A stretch of DNA of 31,092 nucleotides from a virus, in UHGV virus genome UHGV-0151410. One strand, written 5' to 3'. The translations under genes were made by a program, and so were the position numbers. Shown piece by piece: positions 410-30,338 of this stretch. Position 1 is the first letter of the stretch, and each line of letters opens with the position of its first letter. Under the pieces are notes generated by a model, which worked only from the letters and a program-made list of their open reading frames with translations, was not told the DNA's origin and did not search any database.

Positions 410-3038
410 TGCACGCACGATTGGCGGTGTGGCATTTGATGGCTCGGCCAATATCAATCTTCCAGGTGTAAATACAACAGGCAACCAGAACACCACCGGG
501 AATGCTGCTACCGCGACAAAACTTGCGACGGCAAGAAACATCAACGGTGTTAAATTTGATGGTTCAGGGGACGTTAATATCAATACGTTGGTATCACGCG
601 GGCGCGTAACGGCGTTAAGTGGCTCTACTCAGGGTACTGCTGGCATTCAAATGTACGAGGCGTACAACAATAGCTACCCGACCACGTATGGCAACGTATT
701 GCACATGAAAGGTGCGAGTGCTGCTGGTGAGGGCGAGTTGCTTATTGGCTGGAGTGGTACGAGCGGTGCACATGCGCCGGTTTTCATTCGCTCCCGAAGA
801 GATAACACTGATGCGGCATGGTCAGCGTGGGCGCAGGTATATACATCAAGGGACTCCATTCCTGGTGTGAATGCCACTGGCAATCAGAATACAACTGGCA
901 ATGCAGCAACCGCTACAAAACTACAGACGGCAAGAACTATCGGCGGAGTTAGCTTTGATGGTACTGCGAATATTAATTTACCTGGTGTTAACGTTGCGGG
1001 TAATCAGAATACATCCGGTAACGCGGCTACAGCGACCAAGTTACAAACCGCTAGAACTATAAATGGGGTGTCGTTTGACGGTTCTAAAAACATTGAGCTA
1101 ACTCCAAGGTCTATAGGCTCGATCAACTCAGCAACAATGTCTTTTAGTGGTGGTGCCGGATGGTTCAAGCTGGCAACTGTAACCATGCCACAGGCCAGTT
1201 CCGTGGTTTACATAAGCCTGATTGGTGGTGCAGGGTATAACGTTGGCTCCCCGCAGCAAGCTGGCATATCTGAGCTGGTTCTGCGTGCAGGAAATGGGAA
1301 TCCAAAAGGTATTACTGGTGCATTATGGCGACGGACCTCGGTTGGATTTACTAATTTTGCATGGGTGAATACATCCGGTGATACCTATGACATTTATGTA
1401 GAAATAGGTAATTACGCCACAGGTGTTAATATCCAGTGGGATTATACAAAGGATGCAACTGTACAAATTCATACATCACCAACTTATACAGCGAATAAAC
1501 CAACTGGTCTTACTGATGGAACGGTATATGTCATTTACAGTTCGCACATTAAACCGACCGCCACGGATGTCGGCGCATTACCAATAACCGGAGGAAATCT
1601 CAACGGCGGTTTAACGGCTACTGGTGAGATCATTTCAAAATCGGCGAATGGTCTGCGCATTGCCTACGGAAACTACGGATTCTTTATCCGAAACGATGGT
1701 TCAAGCACATACTTCATGTTGACCGATTCGGGTAACAGCCTGGGAACCTATAATAGGTTAAGGCCGCTTATCATTAACAATGCCAATGGTGCTGTTACGA
1801 TCGGTAATGGACTCAATGTTACTGGCGGCATCAATGGTAGTTTGAACGGTAATGCTGCAACTGCAACAAAACTGCAAACAGCACGCACAATAGGCGGCGT
1901 GTCATTCGATGGCTCCGCCAATATCAACCTGCCGGGTGTAAACATTGCTGGTAACCAGAACACAACCGGTAATGCAGCGACAGCGACCAAGTTGCAAACT
2001 GCTAGAACTATAAATGGGGTGTCGTTTGATGGTTCTAAAAATATTGAGCTAACGGCGGAAGATTTAAATCTTGAGCAAACTGTAGAATTAGCCGCAGGAG
2101 CATTGCAGAAAAACCAGAACGGCGCAGATATACCGGGAAAAGATACCTTCACAAAAAATATTGGTGCATGTCGCGCTTTTCACAGTGCTATTAGTACAGG
2201 GGCAGGGAACTGGACAACGGCACAATTGATTGAATGGCTGGATTCTCAAGGGGCATTCAATCACCCATACTGGATGTGCAAATGTTCATGGTCATACGGC
2301 AATAATAAAATTATTACCGATACTGGCTGTGGAACTATTCATCTTGCAGGTTGCGTTATTGAGGTTATGGGTAATAAAGGTGCCATGACCATCCGTGTAA
2401 CCACCCCGAGCACTTCCAGCGGTGGCGGAACTACTAATGCACAATTCACTTATATTAATCATGGTGATGCTTATGCTCCTGGCTGGCGACGAGACTACAA
2501 CACGAAAAACCAGCAGCCTGCATTTGCTTTAGGGAAAACAGGAAGCACTGTCGGAAATGATAAAGCTGTTGGCTGGAACTGGAATAGCGGGGTCTATCAA
2601 GCAAATATTGGTGGCGCATCGACATTAATCCTCCATTTCAATATGAGCGAGGGGAGTTGCCCTGCCGTACAGTTCCGTGTGAATTATAAGAACGGCGGTA
2701 TTTATTATCGTTCAGCGCGTGATGGTTATGGATTTGAGGCTGACTGGTCAGAGTTTTACACCACAACCCGCAAACCCTCTGCGGGGGATGTTGGTGCATA
2801 TACCAAAGCGGAAGCGGACTCCCGTTATGTACGTGATATCCGACTTGGTGGCGCATCATCATACAAACCAGCAAATAACGGTACAACATGGACGCATCAG
2901 GCTCCATCTGGTTGCGCATATACCGGGATTATCGTTCAGGATACAGGCTCAAACTCTGCCGATAATATTGGTGGTGTTTATTACAGACCAATTCAAAAAA
3001 ATATTAATGGCACATGGTATAACGTATCGAGTATTTGA
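270..3038 (+). CDS. Silent alternative tail-fibre C-terminal segment (Sv'-like); no start of its own, would be fused to the constant N-terminal part after inversion
   Basis: Frame is open from the crossover core (GLRELGTSGEKIPLLSTANTW...) to the stop at 3038. Contains three copies of the ~55-aa fibre repeat (GNQNTTGNAATATKLQTARTI(N/G)GV(S/K)FDGS). The track ORF 312..3038 starts at an internal Met. Confidence 0.85.
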   Translation, partial: GLRELGTSGEKIPLLSTANTWSARQTFNGGITGALTGNADTATKLKTARTIGGVAFDGSANINLPGVNTTGNQNTTGNAATATKLATARNINGVKFDGSGDVNINTLVSRGRVTALSGSTQGTAGIQMYEAYNNSYPTTYGNVLHMKGASAAGEGELLIGWSGTSGAHAPVFIRSRRDNTDAAWSAWAQVYTSRDSIPGVNATGNQNTTGNAATATKLQTARTIGGVSFDGTANINLPGVNVAGNQNTSGNAATATKLQTARTINGVSFDGSKNIELTPRSIGSINSATMSFSGGAGWFKLATVTMPQASSVVYISLIGGAGYNVGSPQQAGISELVLRAGNGNPKGITGALWRRTSVGFTNFAWVNTSGDTYDIYVEIGNYATGVNIQWDYTKDATVQIHTSPTYTANKPTGLTDGTVYVIYSSHIKPTATDVGALPITGGNLNGGLTATGEIISKSANGLRIAYGNYGFFIRNDGSSTYFMLTDSGNSLGTYNRLRPLIINNANGAVTIGNGLNVTGGINGSLNGNAATATKLQTARTIGGVSFDGSANINLPGVNIAGNQNTTGNAATATKLQTARTINGVSFDGSKNIELTAEDLNLEQTVELAAGALQKNQNGADIPGKDTFTKNIGACRAFHSAISTGAGNWTTAQLIEWLDSQGAFNHPYWMCKCSWSYGNNKIITDTGCGTIHLAGCVIEVMGNKGAMTIRVTTPSTSSGGGTTNAQFTYINHGDAYAPGWRRDYNTKNQQPAFALGKTGSTVGNDKAVGWNWNSGVYQANIGGASTLILHFNMSEGSCPAVQFRVNYKNGGIYYRSARDGYGFEADWSEFYTTTRKPSAGDVGAYTKAEADSRYVRDIRLGGASSYKPANNGTTWTHQAPSGCAYTGIIVQDTGSNSADNIGGVYYRPIQKNINGTWYNVSSI
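1642..2071. repeat. Internal inverted repeat, copy A (perfect 1677..2071)
   Basis: Reverse complement is identical to 5002..5396, then continues to ~5431 with a few synonymous mismatches. Both copies encode IISKSANGLRIAYGNYGFFIRNDG...FDGSKNIELTAEDLNL. Confidence 0.85.
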
Positions 3039-3574
3039 TTATGATGCATTTAAAAAACATAAAGCCAGGCAATCCAAAAACCGAAGAGCAATATCTTTTA
3101 ACTAAAAACTCAGGCGTCGTCTGGTTATGGACCGAAGATGGTAAGAACTGGTACGAGGAACAAAAGAACTTTCAGGACGACACCATAAAGATTGCATATG
3201 ATGAAAATAATGTTATATGCGACGTGCAAAAGGATGTGACTGCAATTTGCCCGGAGGGAAAAAGTGTCGTTGAGGTTCCTGATATTACAGCAAATCGCCG
3301 GGCTGATATTTCGGGTAAATGGATGTTCAAAGATGGCGTAGTGATAAAGCGAACTTATACCGAGGAAGAGCAGAGGCAACAAGCGGAAAATGAAAAGCAA
3401 AGCCTGCTACAGCTCGTCAGGGATAAAACACAGCTATGGGACTTACAGCTACGGCTGGGCATCATTTCCGACGAGAATAAACAAAAATTAACCGAGTGGA
3501 TGCTCTATGCGCAGAAAGTCGAATCTACAGACACCTCCAGCCTGCCAGTAACATTTCCCGAACAACCTGAATGA
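3035..3574 (+). CDS. Tail fibre assembly chaperone (U'-like), cognate of the silent fibre segment
   Basis: 179 aa; start overlaps the fibre-segment stop (ATGA). Paralogous to the minus-strand 3603..4133 product (shared HLKNIKxGNPKT...WLW.EDxKNWYEE...[23 protein letters not shown]). Confidence 0.85.
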   Translation: MIMMHLKNIKPGNPKTEEQYLLTKNSGVVWLWTEDGKNWYEEQKNFQDDTIKIAYDENNVICDVQKDVTAICPEGKSVVEVPDITANRRADISGKWMFKDGVVIKRTYTEEEQRQQAENEKQSLLQLVRDKTQLWDLQLRLGIISDENKQKLTEWMLYAQKVESTDTSSLPVTFPEQPE

Positions 3575-3577
3575 GAC

Positions 3578-3605
3578 AAGGCCCGATAGCGGGCCTTAAT
3601 TTTTA
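3578..3605. terminator. Bidirectional hairpin terminator between convergent chaperone genes
   Basis: AAGGCCCG-ATAG-CGGGCCTT stem-loop with T-run after it on the + strand and A-run before it (T-run on the other strand). Confidence 0.6.
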
Positions 3606-4133
3606 TTCAGGCTTTTGTGGCCATTCAGGATTTGCCGTATCCACACGGCTGACCAGAACACTGTAGCGTTCCCATGCTTCCAGTCGTGTGCGCTCCTCGT
3701 CTGTTGCCATATTCAGCCTGACAGCGCGTTCCAGCGGCTGGATGACTGATTCAGCTTCGGAAAGCAATGCGGCCTTTTGTGATTCGGCCTGTTGTTGCTG
3801 TTCGTCTGCCGTATAAATCCGTTTAACCACAGCTCCATCCTTAAACATCCACTTCCCGGAGTCATCAGCACGTCGGTTGGCTGTAATATCGGGAACCTCA
3901 ACGACGCTAAAACCTTCAGGGTTAAGCGTGGATGCATCTTTGGTGATGGCGACAATAATATTATTTTCATCGTAAACAATCTTTATTGTGTCTGGTTGAA
4001 AGTTTTTCACTTCCTCATACCAGTTTTTATCGTCTTCGGACCATAACCAGATAACATCAAAATTCTTTGTTAGCTGATATTGTTCTTTCGTTTTAGGATT
4101 TCCAGACTTAATATTTTTTAAATGCTGCATCAT
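3603..4133 (-). CDS. Tail fibre assembly chaperone (U-like), cognate of the currently expressed fibre C-terminus
   Basis: 176 aa, directly downstream of the expressed fibre gene on the minus strand; paralogue of 3035..3574. Confidence 0.85.
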
Positions 4134-7100
4134 TTACACCTGTGCGACGTTATACCATGTGCCATTGATGTATTTTTGTATTGGCCTGAAGATGGCTTCA
4201 TCATCGCCATCTACTTCACCAATGATTCTTAATCCGGTAATTGCGTGTCCGGCTTTTTCATAACGACCACCACGCGCCATCAATTGAACAACTCGCGTAC
4301 CCAGGCGAACATCTTTTACATAGCGTGAATCAAAATTCCCCCAGTTGTTGGGCTGTATCTGACCGTTAACAGAAAATATTACCGAGTTATCTGTATTTCG
4401 CTGGCTATAGAAATGCCATCCTGCCTCATCGCCTAACTCTGCAACTACTGGACGGGTTGAAGCACCCCATAAATTAAACGTTGCATTCTTTGTGGAGGTG
4501 TTGGAGCTGGATAGCGAGAACTTTTTACTATCACCAGCCTGAATGTTTTTAAAAGCAATAGCAACTCCATTCTGAAAGCGGAATACTCGCTGACTATTAG
4601 CGTAAACATCCAGAATACCATCACCATTCTGTTTGAATCCGGTGTCATTATCACCAAGAACAATAGAGCTACCACCTAACGCATTCGTCGTACCAACTCC
4701 AAGACTGCCATTAATGACGGCATTTACCAGAATATTTAGTGCATCCCATTTCAGCGTCATCAGGTCTTTTGTTGTGGTGCTCTGGCGGCTTCTCCATTTG
4801 AAATATTCATTGCCGTTGTCGCCTGTTTCAAACCACATGTATGAATCAGTGTCACCATCGGCATCATTTTTAAATCCAATCTTTGCCCAGTCAGTATTTC
4901 GAATCCAGGCAAGGATTGAGTCGTTTTCAAAAGTAAGTCCTCCGGACAAGATATCGCCTGAACGCTGAACGGCATTATTTGCTTTATTAATAAATTCCTG
5001 TAGATTTAAATCTTCCGCCGTTAGCTCAATATTTTTAGAACCATCAAACGACACCCCATTTATAGTTCTAGCAGTTTGCAACTTGGTCGCTGTCGCTGCA
5101 TTACCGGTTGTGTTCTGGTTACCAGCAATGTTTACACCCGGCAGGTTGATATTGGCGGAGCCATCGAATGACACGCCGCCTATTGTGCGTGCTGTTTGCA
5201 GTTTTGTTGCAGTTGCAGCATTACCGTTCAAACTACCATTGATGCCGCCAGTAACATTGAGTCCATTACCGATCGTAACAGCACCATTGGCATTGTTAAT
5301 GATAAGCGGCCTTAACCTATTATAGGTTCCCAGGCTGTTACCCGAATCGGTCAACATGAAGTATGTGCTTGAACCATCGTTTCGGATAAAGAATCCATAG
5401 TTGCCATAGGCAATGCGCAGACCATTCGCCGATTTGGAAATAATCTCGCCAGCGAATTTCGCATAGGAACCAGTCCTCAAGACTAACTCTTCCTGAGCGT
5501 CAGTTGTTCCTGTACATAAGCGATAAACATTATTCTCTATTGTTTCATGCCATATGCTTGCACCTGTGCTGGAGCGGAAACGTCGCAGATACATTTTTGC
5601 ATCGTCAACAACTGACGTGAGCATGTCATGTTTATACTCACTTTGCGGCACGCCATTGCTATTGATTCCTCCCCGAAGAACAGTGCCACCCGGCATGGTA
5701 AAAATGCCATCTTCACCGAATATCCAATCACCTGAATTAGTACCATTGCCGGTTTCTTTATTCGGCGCAGCACAATTTATCCGGATGCCTGGTCGTCTGT
5801 TAGGGTTATCGACACCATCTTTAAATATGTACCCATCAGTTAGTGTTGTGCCGTCATTTTTCGTATATGTAAAGCGGATATGACGGCTTGTATGGCTACT
5901 AAAAATAAGATCGCTTTTAGTGGTAAGTAATGGAGCTGTCAGACCTCCTAATAATGTGCCTCCGGATAGAGACAGCGCGCCAATGTTCTCTGGTGTCAAC
6001 GAAATATCAGTAGTGCCATCGAAGGTTACTCCGTTGATTGTTCTGGCGGTCTGTAATTTAGTTGCTGTTGCAGCATTACCATTGAGGTTTCCAGAGCTAT
6101 AGAAACCACGACCATTGCTAAAATCAATAATTATGTCGGCAGCTATACATTCAGCTTTAGGGTTGGTAGCCCCCCATTTGTATGTGGTTTGTCCAACAAT
6201 ATAATCCGTTGTAGGGACAACAACAGAAAGCCCCTCCTCCACAAGAACGCATACTGGAAATGCTCCGCCTTCAATATAAAAAACTGAGCTAACTTCATCG
6301 TCTTTATTGCTCATCGCAATAGAATGAATCGCCCGTTCTGCATCCTGATATTGCCAGAACATCCCGTATGCGTACCGCCCTCTGTCACTCCAACCAGCAG
6401 GCATCACAAAACCATTGAATTCGCAGTTGTTCATGCGATGTGCAGCTTGGCGCGGCGCAGTGGAAATAATAACCCGAGAAGCAAGTTCACCATTGCTCGT
6501 TGCAGATCTCTTGATGACTACAGGATAGAATTTACCCTCTTCAGCTCCCGAAGGAGCATTGACTCTGGTGAATTTCATCCCTTTTTTAAGGTCTACTTCG
6601 GCTTTGCTGTAAACATCAATATTTTTTCTTGTTAACGCTGCATCAGTTGGTTCTAATGCTCGGCATTTGCTATCTCCGGTAATCAGAAAGTTACCGTCAA
6701 TGTCTAATCCGGCATATTTATTGGTGTTGGTATCAGATTGTAGATGTAACGTCAGCCATGAGCGGTTGCCACTCCTTATCTCTGAATAAATTCTGAAACG
6801 ACTCCTCTGTACCCCAGCTGAATTATTCAGATAACCACTTACAATCCCTGACGCGGCTAAATCAGCGTCTGTTGAGTTAACAAGATTGATACCCTTAAAT
6901 TGGGGGACGTCCGCAACACCTAATCCAAGATTAGTACGCCCTCCAGAGACGCTGGATGCACCTAATCCCCCATGAGTAATTGGTAAAATACCTTTTATGC
7001 CCAGAAGAGCATTTGATGAACCATCAAAGTCGATGGCGTTATCACTTTGGAGGTCAACTTGAAGCGACCTTTTGGTTTTCAATTTCGTCGCGGTGTCGGC

Positions 7101-8435
7101 GTTCCCTGTCAGCTCCCCGGTGATCCCGCCGTTGAAAGTCTGGCGCGCACTCCATGTGTTAGCTGTGCTCAACAGGGGGATCTTTTCACCGCTGGTACCG
7201 AGTTCTCTTAAACCAAGGTATTGGATAACGGCCAGTGTGCTTGTTTTAGCCAGAATATCGCGACCGACTGACGTTAAATCAGTCTGCGCTACCGTATCCT
7301 TACCAGTGAAATAAGGCAGTTTGTTTGCACCAGTCGCAAGGGCAGCGAGCGCGGTTAAAGTTGCATCCAGAGGCTGTTTGCCTGCCAGCGCATTTGTCAT
7401 TGTTGTCGCAAAGTTCGGGTCATTGCCCAGTGCTGCTGCAAGCTCATTCAGGGTATCAAGAGCTTCAGGTGATGAGCCGACCAATGCAGAGATAGCAGCT
7501 CTTACATAAGCGGTCGTAGCAATCTGCGTGTTATTCGTACCCTGTGCAGCGGTAGGCGCAGTAGGTATTCCCGTTAATGCAGGACTTGCTAAAGGCGCTT
7601 TAAGGGCCAGAGCATTGTTGATAGTTGTGCTGAAATTCGGGTCGTTATTGATCGCAGCCGCTATTTCTTTCAGCGTATCCAATGTGCCAGGTGCACCGTT
7701 GATAAGTGCCGTTATAGCTGCCTTAACAAAGGCCGCATTTGCGATCTGTGTGTTGTTTGTACCGGGTTCAGGTGTCGGCGAAGTCGGCGTACCTGACAGA
7801 TGTGGACTATCGAGCGGAGCTTTTGTATCAACCAAATCATGGAGAGTTTTGACAGCCAGAGGTGTAGCCGCTTTTCTTTCTTCTGTACTGCTTATTTCAT
7901 TAGAGAATTCGACACCAACAGCACGGTTAACCCGGTATTTAAGCACAATCATTTCTTTAGTCACAGCCGTTGCGCCGTTAGGCACGATAACTCGACATAA
8001 TTCAATTTGATTCTGCCCAATAGTATTGTCCGTACGCGCGTAAATTCTTGCAGCACTGACAGAAGATGCGCTCTCTACCTGTGTCGTTTTTACACCATGT
8101 TCAAAATTGGCTTCCAGCACAATAATGTTGGTAGCCCCAGCCTTTACCGAGACAGTCACATCTTCTATTTGCTGAACGGATATCTGAACATTATTTACAT
8201 CTACTGAAGCAGCCCCTTTACCTTCTGAGTTTTCAGAAGTTATACGGACGCTCAACCCTGTGCCGGGAACTGGTTCAAATCCACAGTAAAAGCCCGGCAA
8301 AACAATATTTTTAAGTTTTCTGTTAAGAGCCGAACTACTATAGAGTTCGAAATATTGAACATCAGCAAGCAACGGCTGTGAGACACCAGAGGATAGTGTC
8401 ATTATGTTGTTCGTTTTATCAGCACCCATAATCAA
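4134..8435 (-). CDS. Tail fibre protein (P1 S / Mu S-like): constant N-terminal part (about 7216..8435) fused to a variable C-terminal part (4134..7215)
   Basis: 1433 aa; N-terminal tandem ~65-aa repeats (GTNNTQIA...LDTL.E.AAA..NDPNF), multiple fibre repeats (GNAATATKLQTARTI.GV.FDGS); crossover site lies in frame inside the gene. Likely true start is the ATG at 8427..8429 (the track start at 8435 is TTG). Confidence 0.9.
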   Translation of the reverse strand: MIMGADKTNNIMTLSSGVSQPLLADVQYFELYSSSALNRKLKNIVLPGFYCGFEPVPGTGLSVRITSENSEGKGAASVDVNNVQISVQQIEDVTVSVKAGATNIIVLEANFEHGVKTTQVESASSVSAARIYARTDNTIGQNQIELCRVIVPNGATAVTKEMIVLKYRVNRAVGVEFSNEISSTEERKAATPLAVKTLHDLVDTKAPLDSPHLSGTPTSPTPEPGTNNTQIANAAFVKAAITALINGAPGTLDTLKEIAAAINNDPNFSTTINNALALKAPLASPALTGIPTAPTAAQGTNNTQIATTAYVRAAISALVGSSPEALDTLNELAAALGNDPNFATTMTNALAGKQPLDATLTALAALATGANKLPYFTGKDTVAQTDLTSVGRDILAKTSTLAVIQYLGLRELGTSGEKIPLLSTANTWSARQTFNGGITGELTGNADTATKLKTKRSLQVDLQSDNAIDFDGSSNALLGIKGILPITHGGLGASSVSGGRTNLGLGVADVPQFKGINLVNSTDADLAASGIVSGYLNNSAGVQRSRFRIYSEIRSGNRSWLTLHLQSDTNTNKYAGLDIDGNFLITGDSKCRALEPTDAALTRKNIDVYSKAEVDLKKGMKFTRVNAPSGAEEGKFYPVVIKRSATSNGELASRVIISTAPRQAAHRMNNCEFNGFVMPAGWSDRGRYAYGMFWQYQDAERAIHSIAMSNKDDEVSSVFYIEGGAFPVCVLVEEGLSVVVPTTDYIVGQTTYKWGATNPKAECIAADIIIDFSNGRGFYSSGNLNGNAATATKLQTARTINGVTFDGTTDISLTPENIGALSLSGGTLLGGLTAPLLTTKSDLIFSSHTSRHIRFTYTKNDGTTLTDGYIFKDGVDNPNRRPGIRINCAAPNKETGNGTNSGDWIFGEDGIFTMPGGTVLRGGINSNGVPQSEYKHDMLTSVVDDAKMYLRRFRSSTGASIWHETIENNVYRLCTGTTDAQEELVLRTGSYAKFAGEIISKSANGLRIAYGNYGFFIRNDGSSTYFMLTDSGNSLGTYNRLRPLIINNANGAVTIGNGLNVTGGINGSLNGNAATATKLQTARTIGGVSFDGSANINLPGVNIAGNQNTTGNAATATKLQTARTINGVSFDGSKNIELTAEDLNLQEFINKANNAVQRSGDILSGGLTFENDSILAWIRNTDWAKIGFKNDADGDTDSYMWFETGDNGNEYFKWRSRQSTTTKDLMTLKWDALNILVNAVINGSLGVGTTNALGGSSIVLGDNDTGFKQNGDGILDVYANSQRVFRFQNGVAIAFKNIQAGDSKKFSLSSSNTSTKNATFNLWGASTRPVVAELGDEAGWHFYSQRNTDNSVIFSVNGQIQPNNWGNFDSRYVKDVRLGTRVVQLMARGGRYEKAGHAITGLRIIGEVDGDDEAIFRPIQKYINGTWYNVAQV
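5002..5431. repeat. Internal inverted repeat, copy B (perfect 5002..5396)
   Basis: Reverse complement of 1642..2071. Confidence 0.85.
7075..7219. repeat. Right arm of the ~145-bp inverted repeat
   Basis: Reverse complement of 265..409. Confidence 0.9.
7203..7228. other. Right crossover site (hix/gix/cix-like)
   Basis: TTCTCTTAAACC-AA-GGTATTGGATAA; inner half-site identical to the left site, outer half-site TTATCCAATACC is hix-like. Confidence 0.7.
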
Positions 8436-8878: not shown

Positions 8879-8943
8879 ACGAACATAGCCCCTTCATAAG
8901 CAATGAACCAAAGGAGAGTATGCTCAGTTTGTGATTTCCGTTG

Positions 8944-11635: not shown

Positions 11636-14600
11636 TTAATCCTCAAGCAGAGCATCCAGCGACTGGTCATTAATAGTTGTGCTCGCACGTGGTCGCGGCT
11701 GCGGCTGCGATGTTTTGACAACATTATCCGGATCGCCTTTTGTATTGTTCTTGTTCACATTCAGCAGATCGCTCAGGATAGAGCAGATGTTATCCAGCGC
11801 CTTCAACATAGCAGGATCGTTATTTATAGTGTCAGTAGTTAATGGTTGTCTTATTCCGCTTCGTGCGAGATCGGTTACAGTAGGGAGTTGTGGCGGCATA
11901 GCAAGAAAAGGTTCTTGCACAGCTGAAGCAGAGCCAAATATGGCGTTATTGGCACCAGTTGCTATTCCCCTAATGCTATTAGCGGTTTGTTGAATCCCCC
12001 CATTCAGCCAGTCTCCAACATTTCTTGTTAATGGGCTAATAGCTCGCGCAATCGCACTATTCTGCCCAGTAGACTGCATTACAAGATCGTTCAATATCCC
12101 TGTACTATCAATCCCCCCAACAAGTCGTGAAAGGTTATCGCCAACGGCAGGAATTACTGCGGTTCCTGCCTGTTTAAGCCCTGACACCGTGGAATCAAAT
12201 AGCGAACCAAAGAAGCTCTTATCCTCACCTGTAACCACCTTGTAGCCGTTGTCATAAATCTGCACATCACTTGGTGCCGTGATAGTTCGTTTTCCAGAGG
12301 TAACTACTGGCGCAGCTCCCGACATAGCCTGGTTGATTGCTAGAGCCTGCTCCTGCTGTGGGGTTTTCGGTGCTGGTGCTGCAGACGAAAAGCCCGCCAT
12401 AGCCTGGCTGATTGCTAGAGCCTGCTCCTGCTGTGGAGTTTTCGGAGTAGAAGGGGATACTTGATCTCCCGGAAGTAGATCAATGATTTCTGTATCGTGA
12501 TTAACAGTGCGTTTTTGTTGTATGGCTGTTGCGATATCAGCCACTTGAGAAGCTTTTTTAAATCCAAAAGATTTACCGGTTAAGCCGGATATCTTTTCAG
12601 TAAGAGCCTGATCCATTCCTTTCGCTTTTTCGGAAAGCGAAGATATAGAACCAAACGAAGTAGCCGACGCAAAATCCTTTACCAGGTCCAGACTTGTTCC
12701 AGCAAGGCTGGTAGCCGCGCCGCCAAATAAATTACTTGCACCACTGATTCCGCTTTCATTTATTGCGATTAACCGCTCAAGCAAACTCGATGGAGAGCCG
12801 GTATTAACATCAGCGTTCTCTGGATTAATCGGTTGTGGTTGGTTACCTTTTTTTTGTGGCTTTTTGGCGGCCTGGGCATGTTGTGCAACTTCAATTGGCT
12901 TAGGTGTTGCTGTTGGAACTGCATTCAATACAGGTTGTGCTGGAGATGTACCATCAGCATATTTCACCTTGCGACCAACGCTATATTGCGAATCACGAGC
13001 AATTAGTTGACCGCCATTCTCTTGCTGAATTTTATTAAGCCGCACCAATGTTTCATCGGAGAACCGCCCTTCCCAACGACCAGTATTTGCGTTGAATGCC
13101 CCAAGAGCATTCTTTATGAACTCATTGTTAACCGCCGGGTTTCCACCTTCTTTCGTCGCTATTGCACGAACTAATTGCGTCATAACCTCTGGGTTGCTGA
13201 CGTCTATTTTTTCATTAGGCGAGACGCCAAGATATTTACTGACGTTATCAATATATTGATTGGTATTGTTCTCATTTGGCGGCGCCCATTTGGAAATGAT
13301 GCTTGATACCGTCTGTAACTTCTGATGTCCTGCTGCGGCACTGGTGCCGTTGTAATAGCTTGACACTTGGTTTGCCAACGCCCTGATCCCTTCTTCAGGC
13401 GTGTTGAATCGAGCAAAACGCTGTTCACCTTTTGCATTCGGTGCTTCCAGCGTCGCCCCTTCCTGATTGGCGAAAACAAGGTTCCCGAGATTATTATTCC
13501 GATAATTGCGGTTTTTAGCGTTGCTGCCACCAATATTCAGATCCGCAGCAATGGTGTTACTGGTAGGCGCATTAAATTCAGCCGGGGAAGTATACCCGTG
13601 CTCACCAACACCATCTTCACCATCACGCCCGCCTTGTAGCTGTCGGCCCAGGTTATTAATTGCGGTTGCCGTTTGCTTGGTGCCATCTTCAACGGCTTTC
13701 TTAACCTGCGCAGTGCCTTCGCTGCTTGATGAGAACGATTCTTTTAGGCTGCTGAATACGGTTTTTGTCGTGTCTATAGAACTATTTATGTCACGAGCAA
13801 TATCTCCAGTGTTAAAATTCTGAAGTTTTTCACCTGCCCCTTCAAAGCCTAACGCAGAAATCCCTTTGCCTATTAGGTTGGTTGCACCCGACACTAAGCC
13901 GCCCATATCAAGCACATTAGCTGCTGCATAAGCGGTTTTTTGCTGTGTGGATACAGCATTATCATCACTTAAGCCAAAGGCTGCCTTTTGCGCCTCTGTA
14001 TCTGTGTAACCATCTATGGCGTCATATCCAGCCATTGCCAGCGAACCGATGATAGGGACCGCTCTTGCCGCTGTGGATGCTGCTGATTTAACACCTATTT
14101 TTGCAGCACTTTTGAGGGCTACAGATTCAGTTTTTTTCTTTGCAATGGCTTCGCCGGTTTTAATGGTGGCATCTTCAGCCACAACACCAGCTGACTTCAC
14201 GGCCTTAGCAGTATTTTTTGTTTCCTTTGCAATCCCCTTTGATGTATCGCTGATAGTGCTTACATCTTTGGGTTTGCTGATCTTATTTTTAACTACTTTT
14301 GCTTCTCCGACACCAGTGCCAGCCGCAGCGCTACCGGCAGCAACTTTTTCGCCAGCGGAGAGTGCTTTTTTCCCAAGATTGCGTCCTTTCCTTTTCGATT
14401 TGTTCCGTTTATTTTTTCCCGTCTGATCACCAATATTGATTTTATTTCTTCTGCTTGCTCGATTTTTCCAGAGATCACTTAAGCCGAACTTATTTCCAGA
14501 AGACACTGATTTCCGAAGCTTAACTATCTCGTCAGAAACATTTTCCAGACCATCAATTATTTTGTTGTCATTGGTCTGAAGGATTTTGGTTTGCTCTTCT

Positions 14601-15594: not shown

Positions 15595-16416
15595 TTAATA
15601 ATGGTTAGCCATCCATTCAGATCTAATTGATGGGATAAACTCTCTATTGAGAAAGGGGACGTACAGTGTGGTTGTCACATCTGCACCCTCCTTAGCGTTT
15701 TTGCAATGTTGCGGAGGCAGGATCAGTCGGCTTGAGCCTCTCTCAATAGACATTTTCAGGCCGTGGCGTAGGTCTTTTTGCATAAGCTGTATGCGAGCCA
15801 CAAGCGGGGTAAATTCGGTTTCAAGCGCCATGCTTTCAATGATGTCAAAGCGTCGGTTAGCGGCCTGCGTGAAGTCCTCCGGATCGTCTTCAAGCGCCGT
15901 GCATAAAGCGAGTTCAGCAATTCGCATCCGTGCCACGCCAGCACTGTATTCGGGGCTTTTCATATCAGGAAGTGACGCTCGCATTCGTTCAAGGAGTTCC
16001 GCGCCTTTCCCGGTTAATGGTTTAAGTATCCAGTCAGTTGGTACTCCATTTACTGGTACGTTGGTTTTCACGTAAGGAGGTACAGTGAGTATTTCTACTG
16101 TTTGGGCCAGGTCGCTCAGGTTAATATCTGCATGATGCGTATTACCGCAGTGACTGCACTCATAGGAGTAGGTCATTACTGCATCGGGGCGCGAATTAAC
16201 AAATATCCACCAAAGAGCAGTTCTGCGATCCTGAACTGTCCAGTTAGCACTGTCGTTAATTTCACCATCCTGCATAGAGTTAAGGTACTCTGTAGTAGTT
16301 GCCTCATCTTCTGCCGGGTTCAGGTCAGAATATTTCAGCGCATCCTTCACGGTAGGGGCGTGGAACTGAATTTCTGTCTCAGGACGGGAAGGCAATGGGA
16401 ATTTTGGAATGTTCAA
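15595..16416 (-). CDS. Hypothetical tail-module protein
   Basis: 273 aa ORF with GGAGGA Shine-Dalgarno and TTG start; contains a CSHCGNTHH motif; function unknown. Confidence 0.5.
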   Translation of the reverse strand: MNIPKFPLPSRPETEIQFHAPTVKDALKYSDLNPAEDEATTTEYLNSMQDGEINDSANWTVQDRRTALWWIFVNSRPDAVMTYSYECSHCGNTHHADINLSDLAQTVEILTVPPYVKTNVPVNGVPTDWILKPLTGKGAELLERMRASLPDMKSPEYSAGVARMRIAELALCTALEDDPEDFTQAANRRFDIIESMALETEFTPLVARIQLMQKDLRHGLKMSIERGSSRLILPPQHCKNAKEGADVTTTLYVPFLNREFIPSIRSEWMANHY

Positions 16417-16521
16417 TTATTCCTCCGAAAAGCAGGTATCTGTTCATTTTCCAGAGGATAGGGAGTGTGTGATTTGCGATGGGGATTGAATGAAGATCTT
16501 TGCCGGTCGAGAAGCGATTAT

Positions 16522-16800
16522 TGAGGGTGATTTTTACACCTTAAGTGACGCTACTCACATATCCACAGAGTATTTTTATAAACCTTTTTCCATTTTTAAT
16601 CCTTTTTAGATCCTTTTTAGGCGTCGCTGGAGCCAGTAGTGGCGCGGGCTGTAGAGGAGGCTGGTGTAAGATTTGCCCTCAATTAAATACGGTCGGTGTA
16701 AGATTTGCCCTCAGAAGGTGTAAGATTTGCCCTCAAAAGGTGTAGTAATTGCCCTCAAAGTGATGTAAAAATTGCCCTCACCATTTGAAGGATCACACAG
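16522..16800. other. Putative plasmid origin region: one inverted iteron (16522..16540), DnaA box ATATCCACA (16559..16567), phased T-tract AT-rich segment (16581..16620), five direct iterons
   Basis: DnaA-box consensus match, CCTTTTT repeats at ~11-bp phasing, then a direct-repeat array immediately upstream of a Rep_3-type initiator gene. Confidence 0.7.
16663..16780. repeat. Five direct 19-bp iterons (GGTGTAAGATTTGCCCTCA and variants) at ~22-bp spacing
   Basis: Copies start at 16663, 16695, 16717, 16739 and 16762; consensus GGTGTA(A/G)NATTNCCCTCA. Confidence 0.85.
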
Positions 16801-16804
16801 GGTT

Positions 16805-17560
16805 ATGAACAGAGCGGAATTAACAGCAAAAGCCGTCAGCCTGATTGAGTCAGCGACACCTATTAGTCGTAGTTTGGCACAAGCCAATGAGATCACGGAG
16901 GCTGCTTATCACCTGACTCGCGACCAAAAGCGACTGTTGTTTATTGTGGTGGGAAGACTTCGCTATGCTTCTAAGGATGGCGTTCTTGGTTCAGGTGCCT
17001 GTGAGTTGACGGTCAACGAATATGCAGAGATGTATAATTTGCCCTCTGCTGAAGCCAGCAAGGATATTCGTAAGGCCATTTCAGGTCTTAGCGAGAAGAA
17101 AGTTACGATATATAACCCTGATGAATCGACCGAATCAGAAGACAGTTATGAGTCTTATCCCTGGATGATTAAGGATGCCTATTCACCACGTCGCGGGACT
17201 TACATTATTCATCTTAATCCATATCTCATGCCGTTTTTTACTCTGCTTGATAAGAGATTCACAAGGCTGAATTTTACCGAAGTATCTCGCCTTACAAATC
17301 CTTATTCTATGCGGCTTTATGAGTCCTTATGCCAGTACAGGAAGGATGATGGAAGCGGCTTTGCCATACTTGGCGTCGAATGGATGCGGGAGCGTTATGG
17401 GTTACCAAAAAGCTATCAGCGGTATGCCGAATTTAAGAGAAGTTTTTTAACGAAGGCTGTAGCAGAGATTGAAAAAAATACAAAAATGAAAATAGTCTTC
17501 TCAGAGGTGACGGAAGGCGGCAAAGTTACCAGGATAAAATTTACCTATCAGCAGTCTTAA
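16805..17560 (+). CDS. repA: Plasmid replication initiator, Rep_3 (RepA/RepE) family
   Basis: Motifs HLTRDQKRLLFIVV, NEYAEMYNL and NPYSMRLYESL parallel the conserved blocks of pSC101 RepA / F RepE-type initiators; flanked by iterons on both sides. ATG at 16805 preferred over the track's TTG at 16772. Confidence 0.8.
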   Translation: MNRAELTAKAVSLIESATPISRSLAQANEITEAAYHLTRDQKRLLFIVVGRLRYASKDGVLGSGACELTVNEYAEMYNLPSAEASKDIRKAISGLSEKKVTIYNPDESTESEDSYESYPWMIKDAYSPRRGTYIIHLNPYLMPFFTLLDKRFTRLNFTEVSRLTNPYSMRLYESLCQYRKDDGSGFAILGVEWMRERYGLPKSYQRYAEFKRSFLTKAVAEIEKNTKMKIVFSEVTEGGKVTRIKFTYQQS

Positions 17561-17850
17561 GGGCAATTTTTACACCCCTCTCAAGGTGTAGAATTTGCCC
17601 TTAACGATCGGCAATTGAGGGCAATTTTTACATCTTAATTGCATGTATCTTGTTATTAGCAAGTTGTGTTTTTATATAACGTATTGATATGTAAGGACTA
17701 TGTAAAAATCGCCCTCAACCAATATCGTGCGTATCGTGCATTCTTATTGCGCTTTTTTATTATCATTCACTGTGTTAACTGATTGATATTATTGAAATGT
17801 GTAAAGAATGCCTTCATTACAGATGAATTGATGATGTAAAAAATGCCCTC
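17559..17850. repeat. Downstream iteron cluster (incA-like copy-control array), both orientations
   Basis: Iteron-like 18-20-mers at 17559..17576 (inv), 17585..17603, 17616..17634 (inv), 17700..17717, 17832..17850 in an AT-rich region. Confidence 0.7.
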
Positions 17851-17941
17851 AAAATTGCGCTACCTTCCCTACCCGCTATCGTTGAGGGCGTGGGTGCTGA
17901 CGGGAAATGAGCAACCCTCCAGCACACATAATTAAAGCTAT

Positions 17942-18649
17942 TCAGAATTTGATCACTCCACTCACAGCCCCCTTTAACGCACTTGTAGCCATGCCAGCGG
18001 CACCGTTGACCAAAGCAGAAACACCTGAGCCTGCGGATGTGTATTTCTGGAAAGTGATTGGGTATGACAAGAACTCTGACACCTGATCACGTGAGCGTGT
18101 GATTTCCCCAAGTTGCGTAGGAAATACGCGCATTTCTTCTTCCAGTTCTTTTCCGCCGTCCTGAGTCACCCGGTAGACACGGATTTTCATCAGATATTCA
18201 GGAGGAAGGTTTATTGTTCCATCAGGATTTGTTACACGAGAACGACGCTCTTTGAACCAGTCCATGATCTTGCCATCTTCGGTATCCCTCACGGTCATAG
18301 TGACCGGTCCGGCGCTAACATAGGTTGGCTTGCTGAATTCTACGCTGCCGATCACCTTGCTTTCTGTCTCAATGTTTCCACTGCTGTAGGTGATATCCTT
18401 CACGAACATATCGAAGCCGTTCAGGCCATCCACTTCAACGGTCCACTGCCACCCCTGGGCGTAACGGATACGCATAGCGGCAGCAACAATATTTTTCCCG
18501 TAGGCAATATCGCTACTGTAATTCCCGCTTACCCCGCCGCCTGATATGGCTTTATCAAGAATGTCGCTAATGAGGTTGCTGGTGAATGATTTCGTGTTAA
18601 ATGACAATGCGGTGGTCAACGTTCTACCAACGCTGCTGAAAATACTCAC
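17942..18649 (-). CDS. Hypothetical virion structural protein (tail/baseplate block)
   Basis: 235 aa ORF in the minus-strand late cluster; no motif recognised. Confidence 0.5.
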   Translation of the reverse strand: MSIFSSVGRTLTTALSFNTKSFTSNLISDILDKAISGGGVSGNYSSDIAYGKNIVAAAMRIRYAQGWQWTVEVDGLNGFDMFVKDITYSSGNIETESKVIGSVEFSKPTYVSAGPVTMTVRDTEDGKIMDWFKERRSRVTNPDGTINLPPEYLMKIRVYRVTQDGGKELEEEMRVFPTQLGEITRSRDQVSEFLSYPITFQKYTSAGSGVSALVNGAAGMATSALKGAVSGVIKF

Positions 18650-25037: not shown

Positions 25038-25195
25038 GGTTAAGCCCTAAATTCGGGCGCGGCGTGAAGGTTCTTTTGACGGGCTAACAATACCTACTTT
25101 GTGATTTAGTCAATAGGTTTAGTAAAATAAAATCTATTAACACTCATGTTGTTATGTGATTTAATTTTAGTTTTCTAACACAAATCATTAGAGTT

Positions 25196-27914: not shown

Positions 27915-28080
27915 TTGTATTCTCAATTCATTCTCAAATAAATCTCACTGTCAGACCATCATTCATTGGGTGATTAAGATATTCTCAAAATGAACTCAAT
28001 AATCACTCTTTTTTTATCTCTTTTGGTGTGGATTTTTAGGTGCTTCTCTATTAAAATTGCATTTTGATTCTCAAATGTGT
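27915..28080. promoter_or_regulatory. parC-like centromere/promoter region with repeated (A/G)TTCTCAA motifs upstream of parM
   Basis: At least four ATTCTCAA copies (27919, 27930, 27981, 28067) plus related TCTCA motifs in an AT-rich region. Confidence 0.55.
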
Positions 28081-28100
28081 CTCAGAAGTGGAGCAAGAAG

Positions 28101-29057
28101 ATGCGCATTTTTATCGATGATGGTTCAACCAATATCAAAATGCTGTGGGAGCACGACGGGGAAACTCGCACTCACATCAGCCCTAACAGCTTTAAGCGCG
28201 GATGGTCAGCAACATTTGGTGCGGGCAAGCCGTTTAACTATGTCATTGACGACGAAAAGTATTCGTATGATTTGATCTCGCCAGATGTTCTGCCGACGAA
28301 TAACGTGGAATGGCAATACAGCCCGCTTAACGTCCTGGCTGTTCACCATGCCCTGCTGACAAGTGGCATTGAGCCGCAGGAAGTAGAAATTGTGGTCACG
28401 CTGCCTCTGGCGGAGTTTTACGACGACGACGCGCAATACAATCTCGATAACATCGAGCGCAAGAAAGCCAGCCTTATGCGCCCCGTCACGCTGAATAAAG
28501 GCAATGTGTTCACGATTAAGAAAGTTACGGTACGCCCGGAGTCTATTCCGGCAGGAATTGGCCTGTGCGACAATCTGAACCCTGCCCATTCTGTTCTTAT
28601 CGTCGATTTGGGTGGAACTACCCTTGATGTTTCAATGGTCGCCGGGCAAATGACGGCAGTTTCCCGTGTTTTTGGCGATTCGAATCTTGGCGTCTCTCTG
28701 GTTACCAGGGAAGTAAGGCAAGCACTTGCCAGAGCCAATACCGAAACGTCAAATTACAATGTCGATCAGCTCATTATTAACCGCCACGATGAAGATTATC
28801 TGAACGACAATATCAATGACCCATCAGCGATTGGTGATGTGAAAAAGGCCATTGCCGCAAGCATTGACCGTCTGCGTACCCGCGTTCTTGATGTGATTGG
28901 CGACTTTAAAGGATATACGCATGTCATGGTGATCGGTGGTGGCGCACCGCTGGTGGCAGATGCAATTCGCGAGCAAGTTAATATTCGTGATGACCGTTTC
29001 TTCGTGGCGGATGACCCGCAACTTGCTCTTGTTCATGGCCTGAAAGCAATCGGTTAA
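28101..29057 (+). CDS. parM: Actin-like plasmid segregation ATPase ParM (StbA)
   Basis: MRIFIDDGSTNIKMLW...ISPNSFKRGW...LAVHHALLTSG...IVDLGGTTLDVS...GYTHVMVIGGGA closely parallels plasmid R1 ParM (MLVFIDDGSTNIKLQW...). ATG at 28101 with SD. Confidence 0.9.
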   Translation: MRIFIDDGSTNIKMLWEHDGETRTHISPNSFKRGWSATFGAGKPFNYVIDDEKYSYDLISPDVLPTNNVEWQYSPLNVLAVHHALLTSGIEPQEVEIVVTLPLAEFYDDDAQYNLDNIERKKASLMRPVTLNKGNVFTIKKVTVRPESIPAGIGLCDNLNPAHSVLIVDLGGTTLDVSMVAGQMTAVSRVFGDSNLGVSLVTREVRQALARANTETSNYNVDQLIINRHDEDYLNDNINDPSAIGDVKKAIAASIDRLRTRVLDVIGDFKGYTHVMVIGGGAPLVADAIREQVNIRDDRFFVADDPQLALVHGLKAIG

Positions 29058-29064
29058 CGAGGTA

Positions 29065-29409
29065 ATGTCCATGTCTCAGGAACGTAAGAAAGTGATGATT
29101 TATCTTCGCCCAGAGGCTTATGCCAATGAAAAGGCGGCGAGCGAGAAGATAAAAAAACATAGCGATATGGCAAGAACCGCATTGTTGGCAGGGCTTGCGC
29201 TGGGAGAAGTCGATAGCAGGCTTCCAGGATTACTGGCTTCCCTGCTGACCGAAGACAATAACCCGGAGCTGATCCGAAAAATGCTGGCATCCTTCCTGGA
29301 ACTACCAGCTGCGGTTGAGGAGCGCCCTGCCTCCATTGAGCCAGTGAAGGAGCAAGTTGTTGCCAAAAGCGCGTCGGCGCGCAATCTGGCTGACTCTCTT
29401 CCTGATTGA
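29065..29409 (+). CDS. parR: ParR-like centromere-binding adaptor (RHH N-terminus)
   Basis: Directly downstream of parM; N-terminal KVMIYLRPEAY...ARTALLAGLALG resembles R1 ParR (…ALTAGLAL…). Start may be the ATG at 29071. Confidence 0.75.
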   Translation: MSMSQERKKVMIYLRPEAYANEKAASEKIKKHSDMARTALLAGLALGEVDSRLPGLLASLLTEDNNPELIRKMLASFLELPAAVEERPASIEPVKEQVVAKSASARNLADSLPD

Positions 29410-29427
29410 CAGAAGATGTGCTGGTTT

Positions 29428-29454
29428 AAGGCTGCAAATTGCAGCCTTTTTTAT
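29428..29454 (+). terminator. Rho-independent terminator after parR
   Basis: AAGGCTGC-AAATT-GCAGCCTT followed by TTTTTTAT. Confidence 0.7.
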
Positions 29455-29461
29455 GCATTAA

Positions 29462-29664
29462 TGGTGTCTAATTGGTGTTAATCTGGAACCAGTTAGGTGC
29501 TGTTATGGTGCAATTTTGTATCTGGTTCCAATTTGGGGCTGATTTCGTGTTAAATAGGATGCAATATAAGGTGTATTTGGTCTGATTGATGTTATACTTT
29601 GCCAAACATTCATGACTCCATTATAGAGCCTGTCCCGCATCAAAAAGGCTCTTATCTGGAACCG
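29462..29664. promoter_or_regulatory. Centromere/operator-like repeat region upstream of parA (TCTGG(A/T)(A/T)CC motifs)
   Basis: TCTGGAACC at 29482 and 29655, TCTGGTTCC at 29521, plus repeated GGTG...TCTGG units. Confidence 0.5.
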
Positions 29665-29696
29665 TTTTGATACCAAAATCACACCGAGGAACGGAT

Positions 29697-30338
29697 ATGA
29701 TTATATTGGTAGCCAGCCAAAAAGGTGGCTGTGGCAAATCAACCACCAGCGTAAATATTTGTGCGGAGCTTGCCCGCGCAAATAAGGACGTAGTTCTACT
29801 TGATGCAGATAAGCAAGGAACATCTGCCCGTTGGGCATCGGACCGTAATGCGGCAGAGGTTTCTCCAGTAATTCATTGCGTCCAGAAGTTTGGGAATATT
29901 CGTGAAACACTTCTTGATCTGGACAAGCGTTATGAATTTGTGGTTGTTGATACCGCTGGTCGTGATAGCAAAGAAATGCGCACCGGTATTACTGCGGCGG
30001 ATGTTTTGCTTGTTCCATTCAGGCCATCTCAGCCAGATTTAGACACTCTGGCGCATTTTGTTGAAGTCTTTGAAGAGGCTTTGGATCTGATGCCTAATCC
30101 TAGCATTAAGGCGTGCGCAGTCTTAACAATGGCCCCATCCAATCCGGTTGTGAATGAAGCCAATGAGGCCAAAGAGTACCTGGCTGAATATCCGCAACTG
30201 AAGTTGCTGAAAACCATCATTCGCGATCGCAAGGTTTACCGCGATTGTATGGCTGAAGGGAAGGGCGTTGTTGAGATGGACAACGGGAAAGCTAAAGGTG
30301 AAATCCAGATGTTGGTTAAGGAGTTATTAAGTGATTAA
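29697..30338 (+). CDS. parA: Small Walker-A partition ATPase (type Ib ParA/ParF-like)
   Basis: MIILVASQKGGCGKSTTSVN... deviant Walker A (KGGxGKS); ~213 aa with no N-terminal HTH; GAGGA SD before the ATG at 29697. Confidence 0.85.
   Translation: MIILVASQKGGCGKSTTSVNICAELARANKDVVLLDADKQGTSARWASDRNAAEVSPVIHCVQKFGNIRETLLDLDKRYEFVVVDTAGRDSKEMRTGITAADVLLVPFRPSQPDLDTLAHFVEVFEEALDLMPNPSIKACAVLTMAPSNPVVNEANEAKEYLAEYPQLKLLKTIIRDRKVYRDCMAEGKGVVEMDNGKAKGEIQMLVKELLSD

Follow-up and report, generated by a model that had tools for sequence, protein, structure and literature searches.

Genes and repeats at the locus

We analyzed 31,092 nt of viral DNA from UHGV virus genome UHGV-0151410 ("the window" is this whole stretch), in which a plasmid-type initiator gene with its repeats lies on the plus strand between two sets of minus-strand late genes, so that its transcription opposes theirs. 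PHROG matches on the pmgB side were to PmgB, a sit transglycosylase/tape-measure-like protein, and a baseplate protein, and those on the tub side were to the tail tube, PmgC, and the sheath; the capsid gene was identified from the annotation of Escherichia phage D6, not from PHROGs. The gene pmgB is the first of the late block pmgB-sit-pmgA-bplA-16, and tub appears to end the block capsid gene (23)-sheath (22)-21-pmgG-bplB-pmgC-tub. The preliminary description had put a complete iteron-type origin, initiator, and control module at this place, facing the late genes from between the sit/baseplate and tube/sheath/capsid blocks. Iterons, a Rep_3 open reading frame, a DnaA box, and an AT-rich stretch were all found there, PHROGs and the D6 annotation agree on the placement and opposed transcription, and the start and end it gave coincide with the first and last iteron. 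The features of the locus are as follows:

15595-16416, minus strand: pmgB (PHROG 1854, PmgB-like, E 5e-135; D6 orf41)
16455-16475, minus strand: candidate D6-type late promoter, AAATCACA-N7-TATCCT, upstream of pmgB
16472/16473: left cassette junction
16522-16538, minus strand: leftmost iteron, inverted, TGTAAAAATCACCCTCA
16559-16567, plus strand: DnaA-box-like ATATCCACA, one mismatch to TTATCCACA
16568-16622, plus strand: AT-rich region, TATTTTTATAA...TTTTTAGATCCTTTTTAG, aligning with the AT-rich core of F ori2
16665-16780, plus strand: five direct origin iterons of the TGTAAGATTTGCCCTCA type, spaced 32/22/22/23 nt
16805-17560, plus strand: rep, a 251-aa Rep_3 initiator with WH1 and WH2 domains (D6 orf42)
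17031-17047, strand not given: conserved iteron-like sequence inside rep (pattern match)
17558-17851, both strands: six downstream control iterons in mixed orientation (pattern matches), at 17558(-), 17587(+), 17616(-), 17701(+), 17800(+), and 17835(+)
17889-17929, both strands: relic of an IncY (P1-type) incA array, marking the right cassette junction at 17914/17915
17915-17929, minus strand: exact P1 iteron core ATGTGTGCTGGAGGG, with a degenerate plus-strand partner, GTGGGTGCTGACGGGAAA
17942-18649, minus strand: tub, tail tube gene (PHROG 1842, E 1.3e-98; D6 orf43)

Iterons were located by searching the whole window and 100 shuffles of it with the pattern TGTAnnnATTGCCCTCA, allowing up to three mismatches. 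The window gave 17 matches against 3.2 expected, a number that none of the 100 shuffles reached, and 13 of the 17 fall within 16522-17851. The inverted iteron at the left edge was found in all D6-type relatives examined. The tandem origin iterons repeat mostly at 22-23 nt, or about two helical turns, and the last of them is 24 nt from the rep ATG; with so short a gap, the origin iterons must overlap the rep promoter. Downstream, a head-to-head iteron pair (17557-17604) overlaps the stop codon of rep, and the cluster as a whole resembles incC of F or incA of P1. A single GATC, at 16609, was present in the AT-rich region, which is probably the unwinding site.

The product of rep matched both Pfam domains of its family (Rep3_N/WH1, PF01051, E 2.9e-29; Rep3_C/WH2, PF21205, E 9e-16) and the sequences of the RepE crystal structures in PDB (1rep/7uxy, E about 1e-74), and 114 of 228 residues (50%) were identical to F RepE by blastp. 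Between 16540 and 16810 no pair of sigma-70 hexamers with at least 8 of 12 matches was detected for rep, an F-like inverted-repeat operator was not found between the last iteron and the rep ATG, and an Rfam scan of the window returned zero matches.

To compare constraint, variable alignment columns were counted per element among six slots that are 84-99% identical. Iterons varied at 17 of 204 columns (8%), the DnaA box at 0 of 9, the AT-rich core at 5 of 55 (9%), and the rep coding sequence at 16%; in the spacers the figure was 52%, which is 5-6 times more than in the iterons, DnaA box, and AT-rich core. In relatives at 84-91% identity, the 13 iterons are unchanged in number, order, and orientation. 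Relative to the spacers, purifying selection is strong on the iterons, the DnaA box, and the AT-rich core.

Candidate late promoters and an apparent operon boundary

The motif AAATCACA-N7-YAnnnT is a candidate D6 late promoter. The D6 genome has seven copies, where 0.135 would be expected, and all seven precede late-type genes (lysozyme-like orf16, prt, ddrB, R, pmgB, 23, and mat). The minus strand of the window holds three copies, one each ahead of the capsid gene, R, and pmgB; the candidate start regions are 8917-8937, 16455-16475, and 25087-25107. The upstream edge of the pmgB copy is the left cassette junction, and the replicon itself has no late-promoter motif. We also searched the window with a P1-type late promoter pattern (AAGTkACTT-N4-TAnnAT, derived from four annotated P1 late promoters), which gave no match at one mismatch and nothing convincing at two. 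In the P1 annotation, pmgC-tub-pmgB-sit is downstream of one late promoter, LPsit. In the window, the replicon appears to sit at an operon boundary, between the end of the capsid-to-tub block and a separate pmgB-sit promoter, and appears to split no operon; such a position would account for the tolerance of a cassette in the opposite orientation.

No convincing terminator was found between tub and the replicon. A hairpin after tub, formed by two IncY-type iterons, is as stable as shuffled sequence (z = -0.7), and other terminator-like matches near the replicon are weak stems of 5-6 bp. Thus, late transcripts may read from tub into the cassette during lytic growth, antisense to rep.

The replicon in the D6 family

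The window follows D6 31881-60130 collinearly along its whole length at 96-98% identity, except at an invertible tail-fiber segment and an indel in sit, and we therefore assign it to a D6-like (P1-g2) phage-plasmid. The 1551 nt from 16400 to 17950 are 99.3% identical to D6 (NC_050154 45436-46986), in which orf42 is annotated as "putative plasmid replication initiation" and is flanked by pmgB and tub homologs. The D6 replicon has the same neighbors, orientation, and 13 iterons as that of the window and differs from it at a few points, such as the iteron at 17701, which reads ...ATCGCCCTCA in the window and ...ATCACCCTCA in D6.

In PLSDB, 111 plasmids of E. coli, Salmonella, and Shigella matched the replicon stretch, 80 of them at 99% identity or more. 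These are mostly ~90 kb (about 92 kb) and non-mobilizable, and the neighboring genes are conserved in those inspected. About 100 circular plasmids of ~92 kb carry the replicon, and rep_cluster_1704 is the sole MOB-suite replicon type in the records inspected. The 5000 plasmid records with the best scores are divided by a sharp gap, in which a single one, at 60-80% identity, stands between a group at 95% or more and records below 60%.

A repB gene with iterons has been described on the D6-like pYU39_89 (PMC6799933), and the replication and partition systems of P1-g2 elements have been reported to be 14 persistent genes apart (PMC7969092). For the replicon described here, the partition genes are ~10.5 kb away, past the capsid gene. 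The D6 repB gene is reported to be missing from common plasmid-typing databases and serves as a screening marker (bioRxiv 10.1101/2025.09.12.675607). The location between pmgB and tub is the standard and already annotated one in the D6 family, so the observation is real but already known. The preliminary description had implied that this location was unusual, a view that does not hold for a position that D6 and related plasmids share and that has been annotated and published. The synteny comparison it had named in advance as able to overturn that view was run, and it is this comparison that identifies the location as standard for the D6 family.

Relation to the F, P1, and p0111 replicons

In mechanism, the module resembles mini-F (ori2/repE/incB-incC, IncFIA). 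The two initiators, 50% identical, each have two winged-helix domains; in both systems a DnaA box and AT-rich core are upstream of the direct repeats and a second iteron cluster is downstream of rep, and the window's DnaA box and AT-rich core align with F ori2 (TATTTTTATAA ... TTTTTAGATC). The iterons, TGTGACAAATTGCCCTCA in mini-F and TGTAAGATTTGCCCTCA in the window, have the half TTGCCCTCA in common and differ in the other, which is TGTAAGAT in the window and TGTGACAA in F. In the RepE-iteron complex, each winged-helix domain reads one half-site, so one changed iteron half would alter specificity, and with TGTAAGAT in place of TGTGACAA an incompatibility specificity unlike that of F is expected. 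The canonical F origin has four iterons. The window has five origin iterons plus an inverted one, whereas the IncFIA copy of pSFO157 has only two at the threshold used. Recognizable DnaA boxes number one in the window and two in F. Unlike F, the window has downstream iterons of mixed orientation, no inverted-repeat operator of the F kind between the iterons and the ATG, and no adjoining sopABC partition genes. Membership in IncFIA (F ori2) was rejected on the 50% Rep identity and the replaced iteron half.

The P1 replicon (oriR/repA/incC/incA) performs the same task in a related myovirus phage-plasmid and has the same logic, with a DnaA box, an AT-rich region, five origin iterons, an initiator, and a control array of mixed orientation. 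Its components are different: P1 RepA has no significant similarity to the window's Rep (best blastp E 0.11), its iterons differ, and P1 oriR has five annotated Dam (GATC) sites against the one GATC in the AT-rich core of the window. Calling the window's gene repA in the P1 sense, as had been done in the preliminary description, is therefore misleading, and the gene is better described as a RepE homolog. That description was right that the P1 replicon is not among these tail genes: the P1 tub-pmgB gap is 14 nt, and P1 repA is beside parAB next to the capsid gene. IncY membership was rejected, there being no similarity to P1 RepA and only one exact ATGTGTGCTGGAGGG iteron with a degenerate partner, both unconserved. 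A match of a GC-rich spacer to P1 oriR (18/21) was set aside as chance (E = 7, wrong orientation).

The p0111-type replicon is another alternative within the P1/D6 group, and a close relative of it fills the pmgB-tub slot in CP042620.1. The p0111-like Rep is of the P1 RepA/RepFIB family (41% identical to P1 RepA) and is accompanied by TTGACTATAyGCGA iterons, for which related loci were scanned. Between it and the window's Rep no similarity was detected, and the latter was accordingly rejected as p0111. The D6-type replicon belongs to the Rep_3/RepE initiator family and is not IncFIA, IncY, or p0111.

We are confident that 16473-17914 is the plasmid replicon that maintains a D6-like (P1-g2) phage-plasmid at low copy number in the prophage state, a theta replicon of the mini-F type. 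By analogy, a mini-F mechanism is the most likely for it. As homology with F RepE and ori2 would predict, Rep monomers would occupy the five origin iterons at 22-bp spacing, with repeats of the TGTAnnnnTTGCCCTCA form as the proposed binding sites. Together with host DnaA at the adjoining box, Rep would then melt the AT-rich stretch and allow DnaB to be loaded. By binding iterons that overlap the rep promoter, Rep would repress its own gene; we infer this autoregulation by homology, because neither a clear sigma-70 promoter nor an F-like operator was found. The six downstream iterons would titrate Rep and pair with the origin (handcuffing), which would hold the copy number near one or two. Lytic replication proceeds through a separate repL homolog, D6 orf20, elsewhere in the D6 genome.

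Exchange of replicons between pmgB and tub

We surveyed the slot in loci encoding Tub homologs, 26 of which have a Tub at least 80% identical to that of the window. In every element of this group a replicon is downstream of tub, and it is between tub and pmgB in all except L037, where it is ~2.4 kb further out and no pmgB is within the locus. In relatives whose Tub is 53-65% identical, pmgB follows tub after 100-400 nt with no replicon between the two, as in P1.

Three types of tenant were detected. The RepE-like cassette of the window fills the slot in 20 of the 26 loci and in about 99-108 PLSDB records. An IncY-type cassette, with a RepA 84% identical to P1 RepA, 12 P1-type iterons, and GATC repeats, is in L026, L027, and L029 and in five PLSDB records, including NZ_AP018804.1 and NZ_CP066033.1. 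The p0111-like cassette is in CP042620.1, L034, and L036; its Rep shares 85% identity with the one that CP043240.1 has at the P1 position, and from position and abundance we take the latter to be the PlasmidFinder p0111 type. The left junction at 16472/16473 is common to the three tenants, and homology of the window to the IncY-type and p0111-like variants breaks at 16472-16475.

At the right junction, the relic iteron at 17915-17929 is the counterpart of the outermost incA-like iteron in the IncY cassette, and ATGTGTGCTGGAGGG is a single copy in the D6 genome. A 60-nt relic in an E. fergusonii relative aligns at 51 of 60 positions with the central convergent iteron pair of the IncY array. The relic varies at 41 of 42 columns (98%) among relatives and is missing in two of them. 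We considered the orphan iteron as a conserved anti-P1 incompatibility determinant and rejected this as the main reading on account of that variation and those two absences. Because it is unconserved, we read it as a fossil and not as a functional incompatibility determinant. In principle, the initiator of a competitor could still bind foreign iterons that survive, though their lack of conservation argues against any effect.

The RepE-like cassette took the place of an IncY one, as indicated by the decaying IncY iteron at 17915-17929. In p0111-like elements, three or four D6-type iterons remain on the tub side, while the slot survey found IncY-type elements to be without D6-type iterons. The order of tenants can be read because at each replacement iterons of the displaced cassette stayed behind on the tub side, and the simplest order suggested by these remnants is IncY, then RepE-like, then p0111-like. 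This stratigraphy of slot tenants is well supported. Escape from incompatibility with co-circulating P1/D6 elements is the likely driver of the exchange. We propose tentatively, at somewhat less than even confidence, that the pmgB-tub gap as a dedicated slot for the exchange of at least three iteron replicons, together with the late-promoter motif, is both real and undescribed. The polymorphic slot, the iteron stratigraphy, and the motif were not found in the literature searched, and the D6 genome paper (Gilcrease & Casjens 2018) may cover them.

Alternative explanations

These exchanges raise the question of whether the module came in recently, as a foreign insertion or replicon swap confined to the window's element, instead of being a feature of its family. 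The slot is clearly exchangeable, given D6 backbones with an IncY-type or p0111-like replicon between pmgB and tub; the relic at 17915-17929 records the displacement of an IncY cassette, and neither P1 nor the distant relatives have a replicon between tub and pmgB. A recent swap is nonetheless unlikely, as the RepE-like cassette is the majority tenant and is found in D6 itself and in relatives down to 84% nucleotide identity with its junctions unchanged. So wide a distribution with the same junctions makes the swap old and clade-wide, not specific to the window. The preliminary description had offered either a different phage-plasmid lineage or a replicon swap: the lineage (D6-like, P1-g2) stands, and the swap stands only on an evolutionary scale.

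We regard it as very improbable that the module is a decaying, non-functional relic in an element maintained by another replicon. No clear promoter was detected for rep, and the literature searched, which did not include the D6 genome paper (Gilcrease & Casjens 2018), yielded no functional test of a D6-type replicon. Against decay, the rep reading frame is intact, and its iterons, DnaA box, and AT-rich core are constrained relative to the spacers while the true relic alongside, the IncY iterons, is almost wholly variable. Moreover, the D6 annotation holds no other plasmid-type initiator, and MOB-suite types no second replicon in the circular plasmids inspected. An origin for the lytic phase in place of a prophage maintenance replicon might be suspected from the position among late genes, whose transcription may enter the module, yet this is scarcely credible where D6 has the separate repL homolog for lytic replication and where the module opposes the late genes and lacks a late-promoter motif. 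Its combination of origin iterons, control array, and RepE-type initiator is the layout of copy-number-limited plasmids, in keeping with the preferred reading of a prophage-state plasmid replicon.

Implications for D6-like phage-plasmids

Re-identification of the annotated D6 replicon in its usual place carries little weight as a finding. Recognizing the D6-type rep as a relative of F RepE with an iteron specificity of its own helps the typing and surveillance of D6-like phage-plasmids. With its iteron relics, the polymorphic slot provides a concrete, datable case of replicon displacement in phage-plasmids, and the slot tenants predict which P1/D6 elements should be mutually compatible.

Other replicons in the pmgB-tub slot

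The gap between the late genes pmgB and tub, which holds a RepE-like replicon in the window and in D6, is not reserved for this replicon type. We found the same slot filled by an IncY-type (P1-type RepA) or p0111-like replicon in several D6 backbones, namely CP042620.1 (loci L007 and L013) and the loci L026, L027, L029, L034, L036 and L037; in L037, about 2.4 kb of additional DNA separates tub from the IncY-type replicon. Backbones with the p0111-like replicon have retained three to four D6-type iterons. Directly past the tub stop codon of the window (17889-17929) lies an exact P1/IncY iteron core, ATGTGTGCTGGAGGG, together with a degenerate convergent partner, and this pair shows no conservation among relatives. 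The pair is a leftover of an IncY array like incA, the downstream control iterons of P1. The slot was also present on CALWLV010000256.1, a contig of 11 kb assigned to the bin 'uncultured Roseburia sp.', where Tub, Rep and PmgB are 100% identical to the window proteins; this is almost certainly an enterobacterial phage-plasmid contig that was mis-binned.

Some 10.5 kb separate the replicon from the partition genes, which are located past the capsid gene:

28077-30338, ParM/StbA-like protein, small partner protein and ParA-like ATPase (D6 annotation)

Iterons within and downstream of rep

The rep coding sequence itself contains an iteron-like sequence, TGTATAATTTGCCCTCT, at 17031-17047, which is kept in all relatives, a conservation that may reflect coding as well as binding-site constraint. 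Its counterpart in an E. fergusonii plasmid is a perfect consensus match, and the p0111-like rep, like that of the window, also carries an iteron within the gene. Across the rep stop codon, at 17557-17604, we detected a head-to-head iteron pair whose 20-nt arms are 90% complementary and stand 8 nt apart, a geometry resembling that of a dimer operator but placed at the 3' end of rep. In NZ_CP095127.1 (L008, 3936-5690), an IS200/IS605-family element lies in or adjoining the last downstream iteron, the equivalent of window 17835-17851. Because insertions of this family at that iteron occur in three plasmids of 92-94 kb that are otherwise intact, it seems to be dispensable.

A candidate late promoter motif

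The consensus of the P1 Lpa-dependent late promoter was not found in the window. Across the whole D6 genome (L009, L001 and L010), the motif AAATCACA-N7-YAnnnT has seven copies where 0.135 would be expected, and all seven precede late-type genes; motif matches in the window were as follows:

8917-8937, minus strand, upstream of R
16455-16475, minus strand, upstream of pmgB
25087-25107, minus strand, upstream of the capsid gene

This motif probably plays the part in the D6 lineage that the Lpa-dependent promoter plays in P1.

Differences from D6 elsewhere

The gene sit, for a tape-measure-like transglycosylase, is length-polymorphic at 12258-12534 (about 276 nt vs about 122 nt in D6), and its product measures 1314 aa in the window, compared with 1260 aa for D6 and 1478 aa for CP032875.1. 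The Cin-invertible tail-fibre segment (412-7075) is rearranged and 70-85% identical to D6, and the S-like ORF at 4134-8435 encodes 1433 aa, compared with 939 aa in D6. The divergence of this segment and the longer S-like ORF suggest that the window carries a different host-range cassette.
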